Positions 6,473 through 45,496 of a DNA stretch of 64,000 bases are shown here, piece after piece. The first letter of the stretch is position 1. Each line of letters begins with the position of its first letter. Source of the DNA: an uncultured Ignavibacteria bacterium (GTDB taxonomy: Bacteria; Bacteroidota; Ignavibacteria; Kapaibacteriales; UBA2268); the NCBI GenBank assembly GCA_937127445.1, contig CAKZLY010000021.1:15886-79885 (forward strand), given 5' to 3'. A model generated the notes under the pieces. That model was not told the DNA's origin and searched no databases. It saw only the letters and a program-made list of their open reading frames with translations. Position numbers and translations under genes: made by a program.

Positions 6473-7450
6473 TTACCTAAACAATTGCAAGAATTGTTGT
6501 GGGTTTTGGTTCGCTTGGGCAAGCGAAACAAGCGATGCTTGCTGCAAGAACTGAGACTTAATTAGCTCCATTTGTTCTGTTGCAACATCTGCATCTTCAA
6601 TACGTGATATTGCAGCTTTGTAATTTGTAATTTGCGATTTAAGCACATTTTCCTGTGAATTGATACGAACCTCAATTCCGCCGAGGTACGATGCGACTTT
6701 GTTAATATTATCAATAGCCATAGCAAGCGATGAAATTGTTCGAGTAATAGCAGAAGTAGCCCCTACGTTATTAAATATACCAAGGTTAGATGCTGAAACA
6801 GAGTTTAGGTCTTCAAGATTCAGTCCTGCAACTCCAGCAAAGTTTGTTGCAGCACCAGTTGTAGTGCCACGGACAGCAGTTGCTTCGCTTGTGGCATTCA
6901 AATCGAAGATACCATTAACATTAAAATCAGGATTGCTTGTAGTTAAGTCAATTCTAATTTTCATTAAGTTGTTGTTTGCGTAGTAACCAGTAACCCACTC
7001 ACCTGTAAAGTTACCTTGAAGTAGTTGCTTGCCGCCGAACACAGTTGAGTCTGTTATAAACTGAATTTGCTGAGCAAGGCGGTATGCACCTTTTGCGAGA
7101 GCAACTTTTTCGTCAGTTCCCAAAGCTCCTGATGATGCTGTTGCAGCGGCATCTTTGATTTGGGTAACAAGGGTACTAATCTGGTCAAGAGCATCTTGAG
7201 CTATTGATGTAACGTTTTTCGCATCGCCTGCTGAATTGAGTGCAGCTTTCAATGCACCATTGCGAGCTTGCAATGCACGTGATGTAATGTAACCAGAAAC
7301 GTCGTCAGCGGCAGAGTTAATTCTCTTGCCTGTCGATAAACGTAGTTGGCGCAAAGCAATATTATTGCTGGACGCCGTTAAAGAGTTGTAAGCATTTTCC
7401 GCGGGAATATTCGTCCGTATTCTTGAATCACCGCTAATTGCTGTTGGCAT
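6473..7450 (-). CDS. fliC: Flagellin (copy 1)
   Basis: Flagellin N- and C-terminal helical domains: LRLSTGKRINSAADDVSGY near the N-terminus and ...QASLVSLAQANQNPQQFLQLFR at the C-terminus. Has its own sigma-28 promoter. Confidence 0.85.
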   Translation of the reverse strand: MPTAISGDSRIRTNIPAENAYNSLTASSNNIALRQLRLSTGKRINSAADDVSGYITSRALQARNGALKAALNSAGDAKNVTSIAQDALDQISTLVTQIKDAAATASSGALGTDEKVALAKGAYRLAQQIQFITDSTVFGGKQLLQGNFTGEWVTGYYANNNLMKIRIDLTTSNPDFNVNGIFDLNATSEATAVRGTTTGAATNFAGVAGLNLEDLNSVSASNLGIFNNVGATSAITRTISSLAMAIDNINKVASYLGGIEVRINSQENVLKSQITNYKAAISRIEDADVATEQMELIKSQFLQQASLVSLAQANQNPQQFLQLFR

Positions 7451-7522
7451 AAGCCCCTCCCAAAGTAAAGTATTATTTTGGTGCCTCCTCCACCAAAAAT
7501 TTACATCCTAATCTTATTTATA

Positions 7523-7549
7523 TTATCGGCAATTATAACAAAAACTTTA
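7523..7549 (-). promoter_or_regulatory. Sigma-28 (FliA) promoter for flagellin copy 1
   Basis: Minus strand reads TAAA-N15-GCCGATAA, a perfect match to the sigma-28 consensus, about 75 nt upstream of the start codon. Confidence 0.7.
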
Positions 7550-7585
7550 ATAAAAAAGGACGGAAATTTTTCCGTCCCGAAAAAT
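7550..7585 (-). terminator. Rho-independent terminator of flagellin copy 2
   Basis: Minus strand: GGGACGG-loop-CCGTCC followed by TTTTTTATT. Confidence 0.65.
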
Positions 7586-7625
7586 TATTTTTCTTAATTT
7601 TCTATCCAGCTAATTCAAAATAATT

Positions 7626-8612
7626 TTATCTGAATAGCTGCAAGAACTGTTGTGGATTTTGGTTGGCCTGGCTTAATGATACCAAAGAAGCTTGCTGCAA
7701 GAATTGTGACTTAATGAGTTCCATTTGTTCTGTTGCAACATCTGCATCTTCGATACGCGAAATAGCTGCTTTGTAGTTTGTGATTTGAGATTTCAACATT
7801 GCTTCCTGCGAGTTGATACGCACCTCAATACCACCAAGATATGATGCAACTTTGTTAATGTTGTCAATTGCCATTGCAAGTGATTGCAAGGTTCTAACAA
7901 CATTGGACTTACCAGTCGAATCATTTAAGTAACCGAAATAGCCCAAATCTGAGGAACTGATATTGTTGAACTCTTCCAAATTTAAGCCTGTAACACCTGC
8001 AAAGTTATTCGATGCGCCAGATACTGAACCACGAACGGCAGTTGCTTCGCTTGTAGCATTCAAGTCGAACAATCCATTGACGTTAAAGTCCCTGTTGTTC
8101 ACAGTGAGGTCAATGGAAATTTTCATCAAATCGTTGTTTGCATAGTAACCAGTAACCCACTCACCTGTAAAGTTACCTTGAAGTAGTTGCTTGCCGCCGA
8201 ACACAGTTGAGTCTGTTATAAACTGAATTTGCTGAGCAAGGCGGTATGCGCCTTTTGCGAGAGCAACTTTTTCGTCGGTGCCCAAAGCTCCTGATGATGC
8301 AGTTGCAGTAGCGTCCTTAATTTGAGCCATTAATGAGTAAATCTGGTCAAGAGCATCCTGCGCAATAGATGTTACGTTCTTTGCATCTCCGGCAGAGTTG
8401 AGAGCAGCTTTCAAGGCACCATTGCGAGCTTGCAATGCACGTGAAGTGATATAGCCCGATACATCATCAGCTGCTGAGTTAATGCGTTTGCCTGTGGAAA
8501 GGCGCAGCTGGCGTAGAGCTATGTTACTGCTTGATGCTGATAATGCATTATAGGCATTTTCTGCCGGGATGTTGGTACGAATGCGGCTATCTCCGCTAAT
8601 TGCTGATGGCAT
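7626..8612 (-). CDS. fliC: Flagellin (copy 2, tandem paralog)
   Basis: Same conserved termini as copy 1 with a divergent central domain. Has its own sigma-28 promoter. Confidence 0.85.
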   Translation of the reverse strand: MPSAISGDSRIRTNIPAENAYNALSASSSNIALRQLRLSTGKRINSAADDVSGYITSRALQARNGALKAALNSAGDAKNVTSIAQDALDQIYSLMAQIKDATATASSGALGTDEKVALAKGAYRLAQQIQFITDSTVFGGKQLLQGNFTGEWVTGYYANNDLMKISIDLTVNNRDFNVNGLFDLNATSEATAVRGSVSGASNNFAGVTGLNLEEFNNISSSDLGYFGYLNDSTGKSNVVRTLQSLAMAIDNINKVASYLGGIEVRINSQEAMLKSQITNYKAAISRIEDADVATEQMELIKSQFLQQASLVSLSQANQNPQQFLQLFR

Positions 8613-28208: not shown

Positions 28209-31200
28209 CTATTTCACAACTTTTAGGGTTGTTGTTGTAGAATAGTTACCAGCATTAACAACAACAGTGTAGGTGCCTGCTGTCAGGTTTCTGAGGTCCA
28301 ATCTCAATTGATTTTCACCTGCGGCAATCGAGCCAAACGATTCAGCAAAAACTTTGCTTCCAGCAATATTATAAATTCCTACTAATGCTGAACCTTCAAC
28401 AGGTGAGTAGAACGAAACGTATGCATAGTCTTTCGCAGGATTTGGCGAAATTCCAGAAATTTCGAATGCACCATCACCCTCAATTGTTACTACTCTTGTG
28501 TTGCTATATGAAAATTCACCATTTTGGTCAATCATCTTCAATCTATAAGCATATGACTTACCAGCAGAAACGCTTCTATCGATAACTGGACCATATTCAG
28601 TAGCAACTGCTGAATTACCTTTTGCCTTAACTTCATCAATTTTAGCAAATGCACCAATACCGAATTCATTAACTTTTGCTTTTTCAATATCAAATCTTGA
28701 TGAATTTACTTCTGATGCACTTACCCAGTTAAGTTCGACACGTTTTCCAACAGCATTAGCATCAAACGAGAACAGTTCGATTGGAATAATTGTTCCGCCA
28801 TTGTTCTGAACATAGTCCATCGAAGCGCGAATGAGAGCATCTGCCATTGGGAAATGTCTCCAATCAAGCCCGAAGTAAATCACATTTGTAAACAGCGATG
28901 ATGATGCAATACACATAATTTTTTGATCGAACATTATTGTGTCAGGATTGATATAGAACATACCAACACGTGCAACACCTACACCGCTTTCAGTCATATT
29001 CACTACGTCGCCAACAGGTTTCGGATCGCCAAGGAAGCCAGTTGGAACTGCTGCAAAATCGATATTGCGAGCAACTGCGAAACCACGAACCACTGATAAT
29101 GAATCGAACGGACGTGTTACCTTTGGAGTTGCTCTTAATATCTTTTCTGTGAAGTATGTTCCATCAAGGTATTGAGGAATACCATTTTGACGAACAACAT
29201 CTTGGCTTGCAATGATAAAGTTGCTCTTATCGTTCAATTTCCCTTTGTTTAAGAATTTCAAAACATCGCCGATTACGTAGGTTGTGTACATTTTATCGTT
29301 AGCATCACCAAAGAAGAGCGAACGATACATTGTATAGTTTACCGAACGTTCTTCCCAGCCGCGGCGATCGAAAATATCGAAGTCGTGGTCTGCTTCACCC
29401 TTCATCTGGAACCATCCGATTCTACGGAATGCAGTAATCAAAGTATCAGCATTCAAACGTCCAGCAATTTGGTCCATCTGCTGTGGTGTCGGGTTCGAAA
29501 CGGTATCGATATTCACAAAGCTATTTTCTACAGATAAGAGCAAATCGAGCTTAGCACGTTTCAAATAGAAGCGAACAATTTTATCTTCGAGCACATTGTT
29601 CGAAGTCATTTCATCTGGTTGAGCAAGGCTTACTCTTATTCTATAACGAGGAGTAACATTAGGCAGCATTGTAGAGAAGTGTTGAGGAACATTGTATCCA
29701 ACAACTTGCGAGTAAGTGAGTGGAATAAAGTCGTCGTTGTCTTTACCATCACCCAATCCGAATACTACAACAGCATCATCAGTTGGGCTAATCTGAGCAG
29801 TAACGATTTTAGGAGCAACTGCTGGAATAACGAAGTTGCCTAATGTATCTTCGCGGAATATTTCTACTTTTATTTGAGCAGCTGATTGGAGCATATTACC
29901 ATTGTTGCGAACAATTGCTTTGACTTCAACCGGCGACTGCGTCATAATGTATTCAGCATCATTGAAAAGCGATGTTAGACGTAGGTCTTGATAAGCACCA
30001 GGAGCTACGATCGAGTGAATTTCTATATCGTTATTGAGCAATCTACCATTGAATTCGCAAGCGCCAATATCATAACGTTGATTTGCAAAACCACGTAAAT
30101 TACCATCAATATCAGAGCTTAATACATCATATCTTGTACCACGGTTGTTAATCTTAGAGTTAATTGGAGTTGGGTTCGATTTTACTCTCAAATTGCCAGG
30201 ATTGGAACCAATCATTTCGTGATCTTGCAAGAAGTTGTAGTCAACAGAATAAATATCGCAACCAGTCCAATATCTCCATTGGTTCAATGTTTTGAATTCT
30301 CCAGTAAAGCCAAGAGTGAGCAAGTTGCGTTCAACATCTACTTCAATATAGCGATAATAGTCAATTCCGCTTGCAAGCCAGAACGCATTACGTTCAATTT
30401 TAGTACCATCTTCTTTTGGTTTTTCGTTGTAATAGAATACAGCGGTTTTTGTTTCAACAGAACTTGCAATGTTATCGTCCAGAATTGCAATAGCGTTGTT
30501 GCCCATAGTCAAATCTTTGTTCTGCATTACAGCAATGCCAGCAATATTACCAGTGTTGGCAAACTGATCGTTTGGAATAATTATAGTATTGTTAATAATT
30601 TTATCTTCACGAGTAAAGAAACCAGCTTTTGCTGGTGAAAGTATTCTATCGTTAAAGTTTGGCACATTAATGTTACGAGCAGTAGCAAGATAAATACCTG
30701 CAATGTGAGCAGCAGCGTTATTAACCTTCAAATCGTAGATCATATTATTTACAACTACGAATTTTTCTTTGTCTTTCGGGAAGAATTGAGTGCGTGTTGC
30801 ACCTTCCTGCAGTGTATAAGAAGCCTGTTCAATTTTCACGCCGAAAGTAATAAACGATGATTTAATATTGCTGATTTCGTTACCATCAATTCTAATATTG
30901 TTATTGTGATATCCCAAAAATCCTGCTTTGTCTTCGCCACCGACAATAATACCTGCTGCATCGCTTGTTGTAGCATTAATATTATATATACGGTTCTGAG
31001 CAATCAATGTATTTTCTTCGTAGCCAACAAAAATACCAGCACGTCCAACATCATAAATTTTATTCTTGATAAATTTGTTATTGTTGTTCAAATACTTGGT
31101 AATTGTTACTTCTGGACCTCTAATTTTATCCAAAACGCCCAAGCCAAGAGAAACAATACCATAACCGAATTTTGTAATTTCGTTGTTCTCAATTACTATA

Positions 31201-33695
31201 TTATTAATGTTAAGAGTATCCAGCTTGTAATAGTTATTTTGAGTGCTGGTGAAGAATGGTGGAGTGTTCCTTAATACAAAGCCAGCAGAATAAGTCCCAG
31301 ACGTACGAACATTTTCTTCGAATGTATAAAGGCTACGGTCTGCAATAAATTCGAATTTTACATTTGGGAGACTCGAAGCATACGAAGTTGTGCTGCTTTC
31401 GCCATCAACAATACAGTTCTTAACAGTAATGTTGCGAGAACCATTGCTGAAATAGAACGGAACGCGGAACATTACAGATGGCGGAGTATGCATTTTGAAG
31501 ACAAGTGATTTTTGAGGACCACCGTCAAATACAATATATCCATCGCTTGCTGCATAATCGTTCTTATGTTCGTTCAATACCGAATTAATCGGAGCAAACG
31601 CAGATGTTTGATTATGATTCTGACCAAACAAAATCCCAATACCTGATGCGCTATAAAGATTGACGACCACACTTGCACGATTTGCCATTTTCTGTTGCGA
31701 AGGACGAATAATTATTTTAGCGTTTTCTGAAGCACCAATAATCTTGGTTCTCAAATCAAGTGCAGGGTATGATAAATTTATATCCCCTAAATTGTATGTA
31801 TCATCTTCTAATTCCAATACAACTTCGCCAGAAATACCCTTTTTGTAAATTTCGTCAAATGCTTGAGAAAGGCTTGTAAAATTATTGCTTCCTGTGCAAC
31901 TCGAACAAACTTTGTACGTTCCAACCAATCCAGATTTAACAACAAACGTTGTTGTATAAGTATTGTCAACAGGATTACCTTCTGATGGATGGTCTATCAT
32001 TATTGTTGCTGTATATGTCCCAGTAGCAGTTGGAACAAACTCATTCGGGAAACGAACTATTTTATATGGTGGAAAGGTCGAAGGAATGATATCGATATCT
32101 GTTTGATCCTGGAAAACAACCTGCCCCTGTGAGTTGGTAATAGTAATAGTTGCTAATGCACCAAAAATATCTTCGAAACCATTGTTCTGCACTCTAATAA
32201 CCACAGGTTGTGGACGCAATTTGTAGTTATCGCTTGCAGTAGGTGAAAACAATGTATCAGGCTGAGCATCAACACCGTAAGTAACCTTAAATATATGTGG
32301 CGTTCCACCCATCGGAGGGAAGAAATCGTTTGATGGATTTAGATCCTGCGAGTTAAGCAAGTATACTCTTACGCGAACTTCATACTCGCCAACTTCTGTT
32401 GGAGCAAAATTCTGGAAGAAAATTGTTGTGTTTGTCCCAGGTTGTAGCGGTGCAGTTTTATTTACCCATATCACATTTGGTGGCTGATGAACTAAAACGT
32501 TATTTTTGTAAATTCTGCATTCAACGCGGAACGAATCAACAGGATTAATTCCAGAGTTTTGAACTGTAATTCCAAGAGGAATTGTTGTACCAGAAAGTGG
32601 ATATTTTGTGAACTCTTTTTTAAGCGGATATGGTATGCCCAATGCAACCAAATCCCACGGTAACGCAATATAAAACTTTTGTTGGAAATCTTGTGTCAGA
32701 TCAGGTCTTCCTTCTACTTCAAATCGAGAATAAATAGTATATTCACCACTCGCAATACCAGGATTTGATAGGTCAAGCTGACCGGTTGGACCCTCCAGCG
32801 GATCAACATTTGCTGCAATACCTTTTGCATGAGTAAATCTATAACGAACAGGGTTAGGATCTCCAACAATTGTCAATGGAATTCTTGTTACACTCAAATT
32901 ACCTTCTGCTGTTGCAACATAAATAGTATCTGGATTTGGACTTGTCGATGGGCCTACAATAGCATAACTTACGTAAACAGTTGGTTGAATAGAAGCACGT
33001 TTAATATTTACAGATGGATGATTGTTGTGTTCAAATGGGATTACTGAACCCGCTGTCAAAACTGTTGAAGCAGGCGGATAAACAGCTGTCATTTGAGGAT
33101 TTGAAAGAATTTCTATTCTTGCATTGGGACGTGGTACTGTTCCAGCGCTTGTCCCAGAAAAAGTCAAAGCACATCCGTCGCCATCTCCGTAGCGAACATG
33201 GGCTCGCCCAGAAATATTAGTGCCATATACGTTTGTTATCGCTCCATAATTTGAGTTATTATAGCAAATTTTCACTAACAAGTTTCCGCCAGTATAATTA
33301 AAGTAATTTGCTGGCTGAAAACTAAATTTATTCCACCCAGAAGAAGTTACTGTGTATGAAGGAGTGGAATATACAAGTTGCCATCCAGAAGCAACAGGAG
33401 CTGATATCGAGGTCAACGTTGTATTCTGCATATATATGGAAAATCCAGCATAAGAAGCATATGTAGGACTTATCACATTAATCGAGAATCCTCTAATCAA
33501 TCCAGGATTGCCACCGGCACCAATGATTTCAGCAGCCGTATACAAATAAAAGCAAGCTGCATCTGGATTATCATTAAACGGATAAAAACTTGTAACTGTT
33601 CCCGTTCCAATCTGGATTTCTTGAGAACGAACAGTCCCAGCAAGCACTGAAAGCACTATTGCTACAATGCTAAACCATCTTAAAAATTTTCTCAT
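28209..33695 (-). CDS. Giant secreted T9SS cargo protein (~1828 aa) with parallel beta-helix repeats
   Basis: GAGAGG ribosome-binding site before MRKFLRW, signal peptide. Periodic N/I-rich beta-helix repeats. CTD ...GTYTVVVNAGNYSTTTTLKVVK. Confidence 0.65.
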   Translation of the reverse strand: MRKFLRWFSIVAIVLSVLAGTVRSQEIQIGTGTVTSFYPFNDNPDAACFYLYTAAEIIGAGGNPGLIRGFSINVISPTYASYAGFSIYMQNTTLTSISAPVASGWQLVYSTPSYTVTSSGWNKFSFQPANYFNYTGGNLLVKICYNNSNYGAITNVYGTNISGRAHVRYGDGDGCALTFSGTSAGTVPRPNARIEILSNPQMTAVYPPASTVLTAGSVIPFEHNNHPSVNIKRASIQPTVYVSYAIVGPSTSPNPDTIYVATAEGNLSVTRIPLTIVGDPNPVRYRFTHAKGIAANVDPLEGPTGQLDLSNPGIASGEYTIYSRFEVEGRPDLTQDFQQKFYIALPWDLVALGIPYPLKKEFTKYPLSGTTIPLGITVQNSGINPVDSFRVECRIYKNNVLVHQPPNVIWVNKTAPLQPGTNTTIFFQNFAPTEVGEYEVRVRVYLLNSQDLNPSNDFFPPMGGTPHIFKVTYGVDAQPDTLFSPTASDNYKLRPQPVVIRVQNNGFEDIFGALATITITNSQGQVVFQDQTDIDIIPSTFPPYKIVRFPNEFVPTATGTYTATIMIDHPSEGNPVDNTYTTTFVVKSGLVGTYKVCSSCTGSNNFTSLSQAFDEIYKKGISGEVVLELEDDTYNLGDINLSYPALDLRTKIIGASENAKIIIRPSQQKMANRASVVVNLYSASGIGILFGQNHNQTSAFAPINSVLNEHKNDYAASDGYIVFDGGPQKSLVFKMHTPPSVMFRVPFYFSNGSRNITVKNCIVDGESSTTSYASSLPNVKFEFIADRSLYTFEENVRTSGTYSAGFVLRNTPPFFTSTQNNYYKLDTLNINNIVIENNEITKFGYGIVSLGLGVLDKIRGPEVTITKYLNNNNKFIKNKIYDVGRAGIFVGYEENTLIAQNRIYNINATTSDAAGIIVGGEDKAGFLGYHNNNIRIDGNEISNIKSSFITFGVKIEQASYTLQEGATRTQFFPKDKEKFVVVNNMIYDLKVNNAAAHIAGIYLATARNINVPNFNDRILSPAKAGFFTREDKIINNTIIIPNDQFANTGNIAGIAVMQNKDLTMGNNAIAILDDNIASSVETKTAVFYYNEKPKEDGTKIERNAFWLASGIDYYRYIEVDVERNLLTLGFTGEFKTLNQWRYWTGCDIYSVDYNFLQDHEMIGSNPGNLRVKSNPTPINSKINNRGTRYDVLSSDIDGNLRGFANQRYDIGACEFNGRLLNNDIEIHSIVAPGAYQDLRLTSLFNDAEYIMTQSPVEVKAIVRNNGNMLQSAAQIKVEIFREDTLGNFVIPAVAPKIVTAQISPTDDAVVVFGLGDGKDNDDFIPLTYSQVVGYNVPQHFSTMLPNVTPRYRIRVSLAQPDEMTSNNVLEDKIVRFYLKRAKLDLLLSVENSFVNIDTVSNPTPQQMDQIAGRLNADTLITAFRRIGWFQMKGEADHDFDIFDRRGWEERSVNYTMYRSLFFGDANDKMYTTYVIGDVLKFLNKGKLNDKSNFIIASQDVVRQNGIPQYLDGTYFTEKILRATPKVTRPFDSLSVVRGFAVARNIDFAAVPTGFLGDPKPVGDVVNMTESGVGVARVGMFYINPDTIMFDQKIMCIASSSLFTNVIYFGLDWRHFPMADALIRASMDYVQNNGGTIIPIELFSFDANAVGKRVELNWVSASEVNSSRFDIEKAKVNEFGIGAFAKIDEVKAKGNSAVATEYGPVIDRSVSAGKSYAYRLKMIDQNGEFSYSNTRVVTIEGDGAFEISGISPNPAKDYAYVSFYSPVEGSALVGIYNIAGSKVFAESFGSIAAGENQLRLDLRNLTAGTYTVVVNAGNYSTTTTLKVVK

Positions 33696-33854
33696 TAATA
33701 ACCTCTCAAATAGTAACAAAATATATTTTTATGCTCACTAAATAATTGCAAATAGCAAGTTACATTAAAATTAACAATTTTTATAGAAATAAATATAATG
33801 ATAATATAACAAATTTATAATAAAATTGTTACAAAAGAAAAATAAAAATAAAAA

Positions 33855-38966: not shown

Positions 38967-40307
38967 TTATTTTGCAAATTTCTGCAAAAACCCAACAAAT
39001 TTATTCATTTCGTCTATTGTGCGTTTTTCAGTAACAGCCACAAGCAGCCCTTGATGGCATTCAGGGAAACGGCTTGTATCAATTCCAGGCATAATTGCAA
39101 CTTTCGAAGCTTCTTCAATGATTTGTGACGCTGGAACTGGGGGAATAACCAAAAATTCATTGAAAAATGGCTTATCGCCCAACAATTTAAAGCCACTGAT
39201 TTTTTTGATTTGTCCTGCTAAATAATGTGCTTTCTGCATAGACTGTTCGGCAACTTCCTTTATTCCCTGCTTGCCCATAGCTGCCATGTAAACAGTTGCA
39301 GCTAACATAAACAAACCTTGATTTGAGCAAATGTTCGAAGTTGCTTTTTCGCGTTTGATTTGCTGTTCGCGAGTTTGCAGTGTCAACACAAATCCGCGTT
39401 TGCCTTCCAAATCTTCTGTTATGCCAGCAATTCTGCCGGGCATTTTGCGAATAAATTCATTTTTGCAGGCAAATATCCCAAGATAAGGTCCGCCAAAACT
39501 TAATGGAATGCCAAGCGGTTGACCTTCGCCAACAACAATATCAGCATTGTATTCACCAGGTGCAGCAAGCACACCTAACGATATTGGGTTTATTACTGTA
39601 ATAAACAGCGCTTTTTTTTCGTGTGCAATTCTTTCTATTTCAAAGACATCTTCTAAATTTCCATAGGCATTTGGCTGCTGAACAATTACAGCCGACGTTT
39701 TGTCGGTAACAAGCGAACGAAGACTTTCGAGGTCGCAAGTGCCATCTTCTAATTTAGCCTGGTGGAAAGTATAATTCTTGCCAGCAGTAATTGTATCTAC
39801 CACACGTCTATAATTTGGATTGACTGTGCCGGCATAAACAAATTCTGTTTTGCGGTTATGTGCGTTTGCCATCATACAAGCCTCGGCAAGAGCAGTAGAA
39901 CCATCATACATCGACGCATTAGCCACATCCATTCCTGTAAGAGCGCATATCATAGACTGATATTCATACATTGCTTGAAGTGTTCCTTGCGAGACTTCCG
40001 CCTGATATGGCGTGTAGGCTGTTTTGAATTCAGGACGCTCTATAACTGCACCAACGATGGACGGAATGAAATGGTCGTAACTGCCGCCACCCATAAAACA
40101 AGTATGAGATGAAGTTGTAATATTTTGATTTGCCAGTTCGCCCATCATTTTTACAACTTCGTATTCGGACATTGCCGTAGGGAGATTAAGTTCTTTATTT
40201 AATCTGATTTCTTCTGGAATTGCTGCAATAAGTTCTTCAAAATTTTTTACACCAATACGTTCGAGCATTTCTTGACGCTCTCTATCTGTATTAGGAATGA
40301 AAGGCAT
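38967..40307 (-). CDS. gcvPA: Glycine dehydrogenase (decarboxylating) subunit 1, GcvPA
   Basis: Start MPFIPNTDRERQEMLERIGV with a GGAG ribosome-binding site. The N-terminal motif is conserved in GcvPA. Confidence 0.85.
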   Translation of the reverse strand: MPFIPNTDRERQEMLERIGVKNFEELIAAIPEEIRLNKELNLPTAMSEYEVVKMMGELANQNITTSSHTCFMGGGSYDHFIPSIVGAVIERPEFKTAYTPYQAEVSQGTLQAMYEYQSMICALTGMDVANASMYDGSTALAEACMMANAHNRKTEFVYAGTVNPNYRRVVDTITAGKNYTFHQAKLEDGTCDLESLRSLVTDKTSAVIVQQPNAYGNLEDVFEIERIAHEKKALFITVINPISLGVLAAPGEYNADIVVGEGQPLGIPLSFGGPYLGIFACKNEFIRKMPGRIAGITEDLEGKRGFVLTLQTREQQIKREKATSNICSNQGLFMLAATVYMAAMGKQGIKEVAEQSMQKAHYLAGQIKKISGFKLLGDKPFFNEFLVIPPVPASQIIEEASKVAIMPGIDTSRFPECHQGLLVAVTEKRTIDEMNKFVGFLQKFAK

Positions 40308-40519
40308 AATATAACTCCAAATAATAATTATGTTTATACAAAACACAAAATTAGTTTAATTATATGAGTTTTCAAAAAAATATTGCATTGTATTCGCAAA
40401 TAGAAATATACAACAAAATAAAATCAAAATCTATCTTGTATTGATATGATCGGAGTAGCTCCCAACTAATAAAGAAAAGTCTATCGATTAATAACAAATT
40501 GTTCTATAATTAAGTGTAA

Positions 40520-41266
40520 TTAATAATTTATTACTTTAAATAATAGGTCGTTCCCTTCTAATTCGTATTCAACATATTTTATTGGAACACATCTATTATT
40601 CATATCATTGAAATGCTTTAAACTTTCTATTATTTTTTTATAATTTTCTGAAGTTTTGTTAAGTATTTTTTTAGAAATCAATACTGGTTGAATATCGCTA
40701 ATTCTATTAGGGACATAATATTGCTCTAACCAATCAACATATCTTTGGATTTGAAGAGTATTATCTATTCTCGCTTCAGTCGCTTTAAGTTCGATAAGCA
40801 AAACAAGTCTTCTGTTGTCACCAATGAGAGAAAGCATTATACCCATTTTTTGCATACCAACACCACAAGCAACCTCATTTCCTAACCATTCTTAAACCTC
40901 AAAAGTTTCAAGCAAAGTTCTAAATGTTAATGACTTGATAAGTTCACTTTTTAAAAATTGATTGGAATCGTTATTATCCAAAAAAGATAAATCTTCTTTG
41001 GTTTTAAAAATACCATAGAATTTACCTTCTCATACTTTTTCAGAGTAATTTTGTTGTAAATAGAAAACGACAAAATCACCCTTTCTGATTCTTTGAGAGT
41101 CAGCAATCATTCCAACCAGATTATTTTCTGTTGAGTAATTCAACTGTGATCTCGGGTTATCATTAAAATCAATATAGTTTTCTTTTGCTCCTGTCCCAGC
41201 AAATTGGTATTCTAAATGATACTTAAATGTGTTAGTGTCAACAATGAAAACATGCGTTGTGCTCAT
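40520..41266 (-). pseudogene. PD-(D/E)xK restriction endonuclease-like gene disrupted by two in-frame stop codons (TGA at 41027-29, TAA near 40880)
   Basis: ORFs 41030..41266 and 40520..40855 are in the same frame, separated only by two nonsense codons. (D/E)xK motif LVLLIELKAT. Start overlaps the upstream methyltransferase by 4 nt. Confidence 0.55.
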
Positions 41267-42410
41267 CTTTTTACCTTTTTAAACAAAAAAATATATTCGT
41301 GTTTGAAAATATAAAATCCACCGACTAAAGCTCTATATCGCCATAATTCCTTTTGGTTCTTTTTTCCTTTTGTTTCTTCAAAATTTTTAACAATTGTGGA
41401 TTTTAAAATATATCCTCTTTTCAGGACTTCATTCATAGTATAAAATGCCAACGGTATCCACTCACCTTGCGAATACTTGTCTCCAATTACAATTGCTAAA
41501 TATCTTCCATAATCTAAAATATTATAAGTATTATCCAAAACCTTGCTAAATAAACTCAAGAATTCTTCTATACTTGAAGCATTTGATAAATCTTTCTTGT
41601 TATTGCTAAATTTTATTATATCCCAATAGGATGGATGCATAATTAAGAACTGAACAGATTTGATATTTCTTTTTTCTAATTCCTGTCTAAAATTTAATTC
41701 TGCACTGTCTGCATTTATTACTTCTGTTCTAACATTTAATATATTTTCCTCTGCAAAAATATTTTTCTTGGCAACTTCCACCACTTTTTGTTGAAGTTCT
41801 ACTCCAATTCCATTTCTCCCTAATCTTCTACACTCAATTAGCGTCGTTCCACTACCCAAAAATGGATCTAACACCCATTCTCACCTTGTTTAGTATATCT
41901 TCGTAAAAATTGATTAGGGATTTGTGGTATAAAATTGCCCCAATACCCAGCATTGTGCGCACCAGAATTATCCCTATTTTCTAATATCCATAAGCTATCT
42001 GTAATTATATCATCATATTCTTTCCATCGATTTAAGTTTATATCATTAATTTTACTTGTTTTAATCTCTATTAGACTTTTTTTAAGGCGAGATATATAAT
42101 ACTTCGCTCTTTCAACGGTTTGAGCTTCGACAATTTGGCTTAAATCTTCAAGCAGCGTATTTCTTTTTATTTTCAGAATATCCCCGTCAATTGAAATCTT
42201 CAGTAGTTCTAATTCATCCTTTCTTATATTTTTTACAATTTCTAATACTTTTTGAACTTCTAACTTAATTTTACTTGTCTCGTGTAATGTTTCAATATTC
42301 GACAAAACTTCAAGAAAGATCTTCTTATTGATAATTAAATCTATTTTATTATCAAACTTTTTATAAGAATCATCACTAAATTCAAATAAAGTAAAATTTT
42401 CGTTTTTCAT
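41263..42410 (-). pseudogene. N6/N4 amino-DNA methyltransferase, frameshifted within a CCC (GGG on the coding strand) run between motif X and motif I
   Basis: Frame A ends ...IPQIPNQFLRRYTKQGENGC*. Frame B continues (E)WVLDPFLGSGTT...VELQ...MHPSYW. Inserting one G restores ...ENG-VLDPFLGSGTT. Confidence 0.6.
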
Positions 42411-42562
42411 TGCAACCGCAATAATTAGAAAAATGCAAAATATATTAACATAAAAAATAATTTTGTCTATTGCAAAAATTTTGATTTTTTTTACAATAGC
42501 ACTTTTTTACCAAAATTACCTTCTGCTCAGAAAATTCATATACAGCATTTATTAGTTTGCTC

Positions 42563-45496
42563 TTACAATATTCTTTCTAAATCTGCTTCGCTTTCTAATA
42601 GAACTGTTCGGGCTTTGCTGCCTTCGTTCGGACCGACTATTCCCGCATCTTCTAATTCATCGATAATACGACCCGCACGAGCATAACCGACTTTCAAACG
42701 CCTCTGGATTAACGACACAGAAGCCTGTTGCAGTTGCACAACAAGACGCGCCGCTTCCTCGAAAAGCGGATCGCGGTCCTCCGCTGCAATGCTTCCCGAC
42801 GACGATTTTTCTTCCAGAAAGCTCGGAAGCATATACGGCTTGCTGTATCCAGACTGCTTCCCTATAAAATTGCATACATTTTCAACTTCATCTGTCGAAA
42901 TGAAGGCGTTCTGTATTCTTATTGGTTTTGGCGAACCGCTCGGCAAAAACAACATATCACCGTTGCCAAGCAATTGCTCTGCACCTGAAATATCAAGTAT
43001 TGTTCGGCTATCAATCTTCGATGCAACAAGATAAGCAATACGCGCAGGGAAATTCGCTTTGATTATACCTGTAATTACATCTACTGACGGTCTTTGTGTT
43101 GCAATAATTAGATGAATACCAACAGCACGAGCCATCTGTGCCAAACGAATTATAGGTTCTTCGACTTCACGCGATGCTGTTAGCATCAAGTCTGCTAATT
43201 CATCAACTACCACAACAATATACGGCATTGGCCTGTGGTCAAATTCTTTGATATGCTTGTAAGCACCCGCCCTAACTTTAGCATTATAGTCAGCAATGTT
43301 TCGTTGCCCAACCATCGCCAAAATATTATATCTATTTTCCATTTCTAAAACTGTTGATTTGAGTATAGCAACTGCATCTTGCGGATTTGTTACAATTGCA
43401 TCTTGTATATCAGGCGACATCGCAAGAAAATGATAACGTAATCGGCTATATTGCTGTAATTCCACTTTCTTTGGGTCTATAATCACAAATTTCAAGTCTC
43501 GCGGATGCATCCTGAAAAGCAAAGAATTAATTATTGTGTTTATCCCAACAGATTTTCCCGACCCAGTTGAACCAGCAATTAGCAAGTGCGGAGCTTTTGT
43601 AAGGTCGGCAACAACAACTTCGCCCGAAATCGTCTTGCCCAAAGCGATTGGTAAGTGTGCCTTCGATTCGTAAAATTTTGCAGTATTCACAACATTGCTG
43701 AACCGAACAATTGATGGATGTTGGTTCGGTATCTCCACTCCGATTGTCCCGCGTCCGGGAATTGGAGCGATAATTCTGATGCCACGAGCCTTTAATGCCA
43801 TTGCAAGATCATCGGCAAGGCTCTCTATGCGACTAATTTTTATACCAGCAGCGGGCACAAATTCATATTGAGTTACGACAGGTCCGGGTGTTACAGTAAG
43901 ATTTTCTATATAAATTTTGAATGTTTCAAGTTTTTCTTGCAAAATTCTGGCGTTCATCCTCAATTCTTCGTCGCTTACTCTAATTTCCTCGGCGCTGGTA
44001 TCGAGCAGATTAACACTTGGCGGAGTGTAGAGAATATCCTCGTCGTGAATTGCCACACCGAGCGGAGTGTTGAGGACGGGTTCGTCTTCTGGTGCAGGCT
44101 CTTCGACTTCTATGATTAAAGGTTTTGGTCTATCCGTCTCAGACGGTTTAATTTCAATTGGTTTTGGGCGAATAACTGCTTCATCTATTCCCTCTTTAAT
44201 TGGCTGTGTTGGCTTCGGCTTCACAATTAGGGCTTCGTCGATTTCTGGGATTTCAGAGTTATCCTCAACTGGGAAATATTCATTAGTCGGGCTTTCTTGC
44301 TGCTTTATTTCAAGTTTTGTCTCCGTTCTTTCAGTTGCAATTTTCTGCGAAATAGTATAATCTTTCTGCTCTTGCTTTTCAGCTTTGGTAAATTCTTCAT
44401 TCTGTTGAATTATCTCATTTCCCAGATTATGTTCATTTTGTTCAGATTGTATATTAAGCTCGCTTTCCTCACTTTGCTTGATTTTCGAAATTGATTTATC
44501 AACAAACTGACTTTCAACGTCAATTTTACGCAATCCAAGCGGTGCAATTGGTGGTGCTTGCTCTTTGAACGGGTTTTTTATGTTGATTTTCAGCTCAGGC
44601 TGTCTGGGTTGCTCTTGCTTGCTTTCGGTTGCAACAAGATTCTCCTGAACTGTTGCTTGTTCGATATTTTTGTTTTCTCGGATACTTTCGTTAGATAATT
44701 CGTCGCTTTGTTGCTGAATGTCTTGTGGTAATTCCTCCGAAAGCAGTTCTTTGTTGATTTTTTCAAAATCTTTTACTTTCACAAATAGAAATTTGAAAAG
44801 GGCAATGCTTTTTTTGTAAATTAAAAGCAAAATCTCCCAAATTTTAGCAAAAATTGGCTTCCAATTTATATTTGTCCCGAAATACACAAGCAAAAACAAA
44901 GCAATCAGGAAAAACAAAGTCGCACCGAACGGACTAAGCAATTTCGACATCACCGAACCAGCAAACAAACCAATTGCCCCGAGCCATTCTTTATCTATTT
45001 TGCTAAACGCTTCAAAATTTCTCAATGAGCCAAGCAAGGATGAAAACGAAATCCCAAACAGTAAGTAAATAATTGTGTTGCGTATAAGTCGGTCAGGGAT
45101 TTCGAATGATTTGTAAACATTCAATCCCCAGACAAATAGAAACACAGGCAAGAAAACAATTATGTAACCGATGGTGCCATTTATCATCAGGTCCGAAAGC
45201 ACCGCCCCCGTAAGCCCAAGCCAATTTTGCGTTGTTTCTGCTTTTATTCGTATCATTGAATCCGACGAAAATATCGTCAGCAGCTCTGAAAGCGTAATTT
45301 TAGCATTTAATTCATCTTTTTGCGTGTATGAAACAATCGAAAGGAACAACAAAATAGAAAAAATCATCAGCAGCACAGCAAAAATTCTGGAATAAAGCGA
45401 AAAATTCATCTCTTTGGGCGATTTGTCGGGTTTGCTTTTGGGTTGCTCTTTTTTGCTGCTGCGTTTAATCACTATTTCGTCGTTGCTTTCAGCCAT
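42563..45496 (-). CDS. ftsK: DNA translocase FtsK
   Basis: N-terminal TM helices, a Q/E/P-rich linker, the FtsK/SpoIIIE ATPase (GSTGSGKSVGIN), and a C-terminal gamma winged-helix domain. Confidence 0.9.
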   Translation of the reverse strand: MAESNDEIVIKRSSKKEQPKSKPDKSPKEMNFSLYSRIFAVLLMIFSILLFLSIVSYTQKDELNAKITLSELLTIFSSDSMIRIKAETTQNWLGLTGAVLSDLMINGTIGYIIVFLPVFLFVWGLNVYKSFEIPDRLIRNTIIYLLFGISFSSLLGSLRNFEAFSKIDKEWLGAIGLFAGSVMSKLLSPFGATLFFLIALFLLVYFGTNINWKPIFAKIWEILLLIYKKSIALFKFLFVKVKDFEKINKELLSEELPQDIQQQSDELSNESIRENKNIEQATVQENLVATESKQEQPRQPELKINIKNPFKEQAPPIAPLGLRKIDVESQFVDKSISKIKQSEESELNIQSEQNEHNLGNEIIQQNEEFTKAEKQEQKDYTISQKIATERTETKLEIKQQESPTNEYFPVEDNSEIPEIDEALIVKPKPTQPIKEGIDEAVIRPKPIEIKPSETDRPKPLIIEVEEPAPEDEPVLNTPLGVAIHDEDILYTPPSVNLLDTSAEEIRVSDEELRMNARILQEKLETFKIYIENLTVTPGPVVTQYEFVPAAGIKISRIESLADDLAMALKARGIRIIAPIPGRGTIGVEIPNQHPSIVRFSNVVNTAKFYESKAHLPIALGKTISGEVVVADLTKAPHLLIAGSTGSGKSVGINTIINSLLFRMHPRDLKFVIIDPKKVELQQYSRLRYHFLAMSPDIQDAIVTNPQDAVAILKSTVLEMENRYNILAMVGQRNIADYNAKVRAGAYKHIKEFDHRPMPYIVVVVDELADLMLTASREVEEPIIRLAQMARAVGIHLIIATQRPSVDVITGIIKANFPARIAYLVASKIDSRTILDISGAEQLLGNGDMLFLPSGSPKPIRIQNAFISTDEVENVCNFIGKQSGYSKPYMLPSFLEEKSSSGSIAAEDRDPLFEEAARLVVQLQQASVSLIQRRLKVGYARAGRIIDELEDAGIVGPNEGSKARTVLLESEADLERIL

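Follow-up and report, generated by a model that had tools for sequence, protein, structure and literature searches.

Pseudogenized restriction-modification (R-M) remnants and orphan methylases are a general phenomenon in bacterial genomes. Among the described systems closest to the locus analyzed here are the Type II R-M systems with N6/N4 amino-methyltransferases (PF01555; TTHA0409, 2zie; M.MboIIA, 1g60; DpnA, 5hek), with which it shares separate methyltransferase (M) and nuclease (R) genes in one operon and the lack of any ATPase, helicase, or specificity subunit. The locus is a degenerate methylase-then-nuclease operon at positions 40520-42410 of a 64,000-nucleotide (nt) stretch of DNA from an uncultured Ignavibacteria bacterium (contig CAKZLY010000021.1), which we refer to as the window throughout; it lies between ftsK and gcvPA, and all of its features are on the minus strand. 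We consider it very probable that a two-gene R-M module, consisting of a methyltransferase and a coupled nuclease, once resided here and that its remnant is non-functional. Full-length intact homologues of both genes exist at 75-85% identity, the reading frames of the window are broken in comparison with the intact orthologues of the Ignavibacteria metagenome-assembled genome (MAG) SKW44 (locus L009), conserved and catalytic residues are changed, and at least five lesions, independent of each other and differing in kind, affect the pair. The first-pass annotation of the window, made from the letters alone, had likewise taken both genes to be inactivated and the R-M pair to be lost by mutation, and the existence of intact homologues and orthologues, together with several independent lesions, bears this out.

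The methyltransferase pseudogene is present as two fragments in different frames. The N-terminal fragment (41868..42410, 180 codons followed by TAG in the list of open reading frames, ORFs) contains the variable N-terminal region and motif X (IPQIPNQFLRRYTK, 41930-41889), aligns with residues 1-177 of the intact homologues, which are 381-385 residues long and 75-80% identical, and ends in IPQIPNQFLRRYTKQGENGC directly before its stop codon (...YTKQGENGC, stop). The C-terminal fragment (41263..41874, 203 codons followed by TGA) starts with VLDPFLGSGTT and carries motif I (LDPFLGSGTT, 41871-41842) as well as motif IV (41637-41623), which reads HPSYW and is mutated from HPPYW. The break between motifs X and I is where the first-pass annotation had placed it, and the expected N6_N4_Mtase homology is also there, as the repaired methylase scores 79.5 bits against this Pfam family (cut-off 26.7, 4.4e-22); a homologue (P0001) matches the PADLOC MTase_II model PDLC03351 at 3e-138.

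The nature of the frameshift emerges from the DNA alignment with eight relatives, all of which (8/8) read GGT GA(A/G) TGG GTn where the window reads GGT GAG AAT GGG TG, such that GGT--GA(A/G)TGGGT in the relatives is aligned with GGTGAGAATGGGT in the window. The lesion is thus a 2-nt GA insertion within GAGA (41882-41879), which shifts the methylase frame. Without this insertion, the window would read GGTGAATGG; the ancestral GGT GA(A/G) TGG GTn encodes G-E-W-V, and all intact methylase homologues read YTKQGEWVLDPFLGSGTT at the break site (QGEWVLDPF). A different repair had been proposed from the letters, namely one extra G/C in the CCC run at 41874-41876. This does restore the frame, but it gives ENGV where the homologues have EWV with two bases fewer, which argues for the GA insertion instead. 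The damage is not limited to the frame: motif IV is HPPYW in 120/120 homologues, the replacement of its Pro (P260S) is seen in the window copy only, and the window methylase deviates at 8 columns that are at least 97% conserved among these 120 homologues, compared to a median of 0 such changes per homologue and a 95th percentile of 4-5 for both the methylase and the nuclease.

We note that the C-terminal methylase fragment starts with a GTG (41874) preceded, at a distance of 6 nt, by a Shine-Dalgarno-like AGGTGA (window 41874-41886), and that this fragment could in principle be translated independently. Split methylases are known, for example M.AquI, and motif X is retained here in the N-terminal fragment, with motifs I to IV and the complete C-terminal portion of the protein retained in the other. 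Taken together with the potential ribosome-binding site, this raises the question of whether the two polypeptides are both produced and act together as a split enzyme, leaving a residual orphan methylase that would provide methylation without restriction. We regard this as distinctly unlikely. The motif IV Pro that is invariant in 120/120 homologues is a Ser in this fragment, seven other highly conserved residues are altered, and the methylase is a single intact polypeptide in all of the relatives' genome loci that we compared (80/80); moreover, with the nuclease dead, there is no selection for protection. In line with the reading of the locus as a non-functional remnant, no activity would be expected from any part of it.

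The second gene of the pair begins at an ATGA overlap (41263..41266), in which the methylase stop codon TGA and the nuclease start codon ATG share the sequence ATGA. The M-then-R operon arrangement with a 4-nt overlap (41266-41263) had already been recognized and is retained here; the overlap suggests translational coupling of the two genes. The nuclease remnant is one frame running from 41266 to 40520, with 248 codons in comparison to 385-387 residues in the intact homologues. Its first fragment (41030..41266, 78 codons) holds most of a PUA/EVE-like N-terminal domain and ends in a TGA at 41032-41030, where codon 79 has changed from TGG (Trp), the codon found in 7/8 aligned relatives, to TGA. 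The second stop codon, a TAA at 40894-40892, arises at the junction (GTT TA/A GAA) of an in-frame deletion of 411-417 nt (~414 nt, ~138 codons), which takes out the entire middle domain of the nuclease. This junction (40886..40900; GAG GTT TA/A GAA TGG, with the slash marking the junction) is defined by both protein and DNA alignments, including those with the two orthologous loci discussed below.

Downstream of the deletion, 40520..40885 encodes what is left of a C-terminal NucS-like PD-(D/E)xK domain, with a sub-threshold match to NucS_C (22.6 vs a cut-off of 24 bits). The catalytic Asp of this motif (RID, within ..RIDIMLSL.. in the homologues) is a Gly in the window (D142G, codon 40843-40841), the ELK is retained in a LIELK stretch at 40798-40784, and the conserved Pro preceding IELK is a Leu. 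Overall, 9 columns with at least 97% conservation across 120 homologues are altered in the window nuclease, the catalytic Asp among them. These results change the earlier picture of this gene in part. The description of a single frame interrupted only by TGA and TAA is correct with respect to the one frame and both stop codons, but it misses the ~414-nt deletion, at whose junction the TAA lies; similarly, the proposed PD-(D/E)xK signature GMIAD...IELK is right about the ELK, but GMIAD (41113-41099) falls in the N-terminal PUA/EVE-like domain, and the true catalytic Asp is that of RID, now Gly.

Since both genes of the pair are interrupted in a metagenomic assembly, we also considered that the interruptions could be assembly or sequencing errors and that the methylase, and perhaps the nuclease, is intact in the organism, as the first-pass annotation had allowed for the methylase. 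That the frameshift adjoins a short GGG/CCC run is in keeping with such an error; however, the lesion is a 2-nt insertion in GAGA and not a homopolymer miscount, and it is one of at least five independent lesions, including the ~414-nt deletion and two substitutions of catalytic residues. Furthermore, the same lesions are present in a second assembly, the JGI contig Ga0116210_1000204 (metagenome 3300010288), which is identical to the window in this region and differs from it by one mismatch in 17,341 nt, located outside of the pair. The four fragment proteins are also found in NCBI, JGI/IMG, Logan, and ENA, on contigs of up to 184,587 nt, which, like the second assembly, may not derive from independent reads. 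Scans of metagenome collections for the frameshifted or the ancestral allele gave no match, in a search where the source contig itself was also unmatched. With a second assembly identical in this region, four sources carrying the fragments, the Pro-to-Ser substitution in motif IV, and a nuclease that is dead beyond repair, we consider it very unlikely that a functional methylase is concealed by an assembly error.

The interruptions could alternatively be genuine but bypassed during translation, by a programmed ribosomal frameshift in the methylase and by stop codon read-through in the nuclease (with TGA read as Trp or selenocysteine), thus yielding full-length proteins. The window TGA does sit where the homologues have a Trp (TGG). 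Nevertheless, TGA is an ordinary stop codon in the window, where it ends 7 of the 37 long ORFs, and ftsK and gcvPA on either side read as intact genes with translation table 11. No homologue is frameshifted at the break site of the methylase, an Rfam scan of 40000-42800 at E <= 0.1 returned no match, and read-through cannot bring back the ~138 deleted codons or the catalytic Asp. Recoding is therefore vanishingly improbable, and an alternative genetic code or read-through was rejected on the grounds that TGA is a normal stop in the window and that the deletion is unreadable.

To place this decay in its evolutionary context, the 80 relatives' genome loci can be compared with the window, and two of them have the pair at the same ftsK-gcvPA site. 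One is the Ignavibacteria MAG SKW44 (L009), with an intact methylase of 374 residues, an intact nuclease of 387 residues, and the gene order ftsK-M-R-gcvPA. The other is the MAG UR.bin29 (L020), in which the methylase (381 residues) is intact and the nuclease is split by a 1-nt deletion near codon 98; this nuclease (7143-8302 of that locus) is present as ORFs of 104 and 282 residues, with the deletion at GATAAT-ATGATG and the break near 7430-7460. The window itself has a frameshifted methylase and a nuclease with a deletion, two stop codons, and an Asp-to-Gly substitution at the catalytic position. The flanking proteins of both loci are 88-89% (FtsK) and 95-97% (GcvPA) identical to those of the window, and the nucleotide sequences are 77-80% identical over the pair and 82-89% identical in the flanking DNA, with the alignment between L020 and the window continuing without a break from ftsK into the pair. 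In all three cases, the methylase and nuclease genes, adjacent and co-oriented, are the only genes between ftsK and gcvPA, and subunits of Type I or III systems (HsdS, helicase, ATPase) are absent from this interval. The presence of the pair in both relatives at the same site and with matching flanks indicates that the module was already present in a common ancestor and has been inherited vertically. We take L020 to be an intermediate state of decay at this site, although its lesion could also be an assembly error of the MAG.

In contrast to the methylase, which is undisrupted throughout the 80 loci, the nuclease is disrupted in L020 and in two further loci, L015 and L074. The L015 nuclease, from a Planctomycetaceae MAG (7122-7737), is without residues ~96-308, which is a different internal deletion, and that of L074 (7073-7894) is truncated after ~238 residues; in both cases the methylase is intact. 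To judge from the sequences, these are independent cases of decay of the same nuclease in other phyla.

Taking these observations together, we propose the following history. An Ignavibacteria-like ancestor would have acquired the module between ftsK and gcvPA, and it would have been inherited vertically since. The nuclease was destroyed by the TGG-to-TGA nonsense mutation, the ~414-nt deletion, and the substitution of the catalytic Asp by Gly, and the methylase by the GA insertion between motifs X and I and the Pro-to-Ser substitution in motif IV. The nuclease was probably lost first and the methylase second, as suggested by the sister genome L020, and this order is to be expected because loss of the nuclease ends the need for protection, while loss of the methylase first would be lethal. 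The pairwise dN/dS ratio (nonsynonymous over synonymous substitution rates, NG86) between the window and its intact relatives is only 0.06-0.13, which suggests that the branch was mostly under constraint and that the decay is comparatively recent; dS is 1-2 in these comparisons and near saturation. A pseudogenized R-M pair is, in itself, an ordinary decay event, and is useful mainly for annotation, as the region should be annotated as two pseudogenes and not as four small genes. The three loci do, however, provide a natural time series at one site, with an intact pair (L009), a broken nuclease (L020), and both genes broken (window), and this three-state series fits the loss of a toxic nuclease before that of its protective methylase.

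As regards its origin, the pair has a G+C content of 28.7% in comparison to 38.2% for the window, and the G+C content drops to 25-31% over the pair and its flanking spacers (40200-42600), against 38% for the window. This contrast is consistent with a foreign origin of the pair, and indicates an older horizontal acquisition. Searching 40250-42650 for repeats yielded nothing beyond short AT-rich matches, as expected by chance, and neither repeats nor mobility genes were found at the ends of the pair. The AT-rich intergenic region that extends from the ftsK stop codon to the methylase start in the ORF map (42411..42562) is presumed to be the promoter region of the former operon; promoter and terminator scans of the region gave nothing above shuffled expectation. 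Elsewhere on the minus strand of the window (28209-33719), an ORF of 1836 residues has a JGI counterpart with a Por_Secre_tail domain (type IX secretion sorting), which is consistent with a host in the Fibrobacteres-Chlorobi-Bacteroidetes (FCB) group (Ignavibacteria/Bacteroidota).

The parent family of this module is widespread in uncultured anaerobes and archaea, and highly conserved. At least 588 GTDB species genomes, bacterial as well as archaeal, encode relatives of the methylase, with bacterial hosts that include Ignavibacteria, Bacteroidota, Caldiserica, Atribacterota, Zixibacteria, Omnitrophota, and Planctomycetota, and archaeal hosts that include Altiarchaeales, Thermoplasmatota, and methanogens. 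For methylases of at least 70% identity, the 385-residue nuclease is almost always encoded directly downstream, and the M-then-R order, in which the two genes overlap or are separated by a few bases, is shared by L009, L020, and most close relatives; in total, a methylase adjoins the nuclease in ~27 intact loci, and in the window it lies directly upstream of the nuclease and overlaps it. Among intact pairs, dN/dS is 0.05-0.13 at a dS of 0.4-1.3, such that the high protein identity reflects strong purifying selection and not recent spread alone. Relatives of the nuclease are absent from the sequenced plasmid and phage collections searched, in which methylases were found only at 33% identity or less, and an exhaustive search for the nuclease gave only 322 clusters (at 50% identity) at E <= 0.001, many of them fragments. 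No PADLOC model (including REase) matches the nuclease, and no Pfam or NCBIfam cut-off is reached. From the alignments and an AlphaFold model of an intact homologue (P0121; pLDDT 70.7, pTM 0.73), the intact nuclease (385 residues) begins with a PUA/EVE-like domain, continues with a middle domain, and ends in a NucS/FokI-like PD-(D/E)xK domain. It is thus a separate gene with a nuclease catalytic core, in which a PUA-superfamily reader domain is fused to the nuclease.

More distant members of the methylase family have other partners. An ICEA/NlaIII-family nuclease (Pfam ICEA, 1.9e-7) follows methylases of 60-70% identity in L053 (4805-5455) and L055 (1405-2049), and a PUA-NucS-like third gene is tightly packed after the methylase and the ICEA-like nuclease in L055 (2051-3154) and L035 (7067-7908). 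In other loci (L046, L024, and L038; L050, L066, and L034), the partner position is occupied by two additional kinds of small ORF, again unrelated, that have D...(D)xK-like motifs. In addition, a conserved ORF of ~180 residues, for which there is no Pfam match, directly follows the methylase in L013 (5551-6093) and L016 (2739-3278); in L013 it separates the methylase from the nuclease, and L016 has no nuclease.

What the intact module did can be approached from this gene content. The methylase would mark a specific DNA site, and the nuclease would cleave DNA without this mark, with recognition and cleavage assigned to different domains, as in FokI. We infer that the intact module was a Type II-like R-M system, which is the best-supported reading, with the label Type II being read off the gene content. 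The nuclease would be the cognate restriction enzyme, as is suggested by operon linkage in ~30 loci and by the repeated decay of the nuclease beside an intact methylase (L015, L020, and L074).

Several points weigh against our account of a decayed Type II-like module. Relaxed selection is not demonstrable from the dN/dS rates, which, with synonymous sites near saturation, provide a weak test, and we have set dN/dS aside as proof of relaxed selection for this reason. The nuclease family is biochemically uncharacterized and reaches no curated-family threshold, such that it can only be called a putative restriction enzyme. The motif IV variant HPPY is unusual. Finally, PUA-superfamily nuclease fusions are usually modification-dependent and rarely found beside a DNA methylase, with fewer than 6% having a neighboring methylase (Lutz et al. 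2019, PMC6765204).

The last of these points leads to a different view of the parent module, namely that it is not a classical Type II system, but that the PUA/EVE-like domain reads a modified base and the nuclease is modification-sensing. In that case, direct recognition of the cognate mark might inhibit the nuclease, or modified DNA of foreign origin might be its target, with another role for the methylase, and the window would be a dead copy of such a module. This is supported by the known modification dependence and scarcity beside DNA methylases of PUA-nuclease fusions (PMC6765204), by L055 and L035, where the PUA-NucS-like gene lies downstream of a methylase and an ICEA/NlaIII-like nuclease as an extra component, and by the fact that no known restriction-enzyme model matches the nuclease. 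However, the module of the close clade consists strictly of two genes, M then R and usually overlapping, and in related methylases (60-70% identity) a different small nuclease takes the place of R as the single partner, as in the usual partner swapping of R-M systems. The nuclease also decays while the methylase persists (L015, L020, and L074), as expected of a toxic partner. On balance, we consider a modification-sensing nuclease to be possible but rather unlikely.

We attach a similarly tentative status to the related suggestion, which we also think rather unlikely, that the parent family is an uncharacterized R-M-like class, in which a reader-type nuclease is obligately coupled to an atypical HPPY amino-methyltransferase, and in which the reader may check methylation directly. 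If this were the case, cleavage would be switched off on self DNA, or switched on when foreign DNA is sensed, unlike the discrimination made by classical Type II systems. We found no paper describing a PUA/EVE-NucS and methylase pair or the HPPY motif, in a survey that did not extend to a comparison with REBASE.

We also examined whether palindrome usage bears on the recognition site. In the window, the observed and expected counts are 4 vs 82 for CTAG, 23 vs 155 for CATG, 16 vs 82 for GGCC, and 78 vs 188 for GATC, and L020 has zero CATG, CTAG, GATC, and GGCC in 13 kb. This avoidance in the host lineage suggests long exposure to several restriction systems, and it cannot be tied to the pair. 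A recognition site derived from palindrome avoidance was therefore rejected, as CATG, CTAG, GGCC, and GATC are all avoided and the pattern is unspecific in other hosts of the family. The nuclease belongs to no curated family and is biochemically undescribed; intact members of the family, for example the L009 pair, would be worth characterizing.

Comparison of this family with known enzymes places it close to, but apart from, several of them. With PF01555 enzymes, the motif X-I region (FxGxG, here LDPFLGSGTT) and the PPY-type motif IV can be aligned, such that HPPYW of the family corresponds to SPPYW of TTHA0409 and to DPPY of DpnA, MboIIA, and Trm11. The solved relatives of the beta class, however, have the order IV...X-I, whereas the family here is permuted to X-I...IV; and PF01555 enzymes have (D/N/S)PPY, whereas the family has HPPY, which is a non-canonical first residue with respect to (D/N/S)PP(Y/F) alongside a present motif I (FxGxG), and the window has HPSY and a frameshift.

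On the nuclease side, the PD-(D/E)xK fold is common to the family nuclease, NucS/EndoMS, and FokI-type cleavage domains, with scores below the family cut-offs. In contrast to NucS/EndoMS, the family nuclease is not a mismatch-repair enzyme, has a PUA/EVE-like N-terminal domain, and is encoded with a methylase, and its catalytic Asp is Gly in the window. The PUA-superfamily modification-dependent endonucleases, such as the EVE-HNH enzyme VcaM4I (Lutz et al. 2019, PMC6765204), share the arrangement of an N-terminal PUA/EVE-like domain and a C-terminal nuclease. They almost never adjoin a methylase (PMC6765204), whereas the nuclease of this family does not stand alone but appears translationally coupled to one; in addition, its nuclease domain is PD-(D/E)xK and NucS-like rather than HNH.

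The iceA1/hpyIM-type modules (NlaIII-like, CATG) are related through the methylase, in that some methylases of 60-70% identity pair with an ICEA nuclease (L053 and L055), whereas the partner in the window is an unrelated PUA-NucS protein. Set against R-M remnants in general, finally, the locus is a typical case, in which a nonsense mutation, deletion, or frameshift eliminates the nuclease, and the methylase is either kept, as in L020, or lost later, as in the window.

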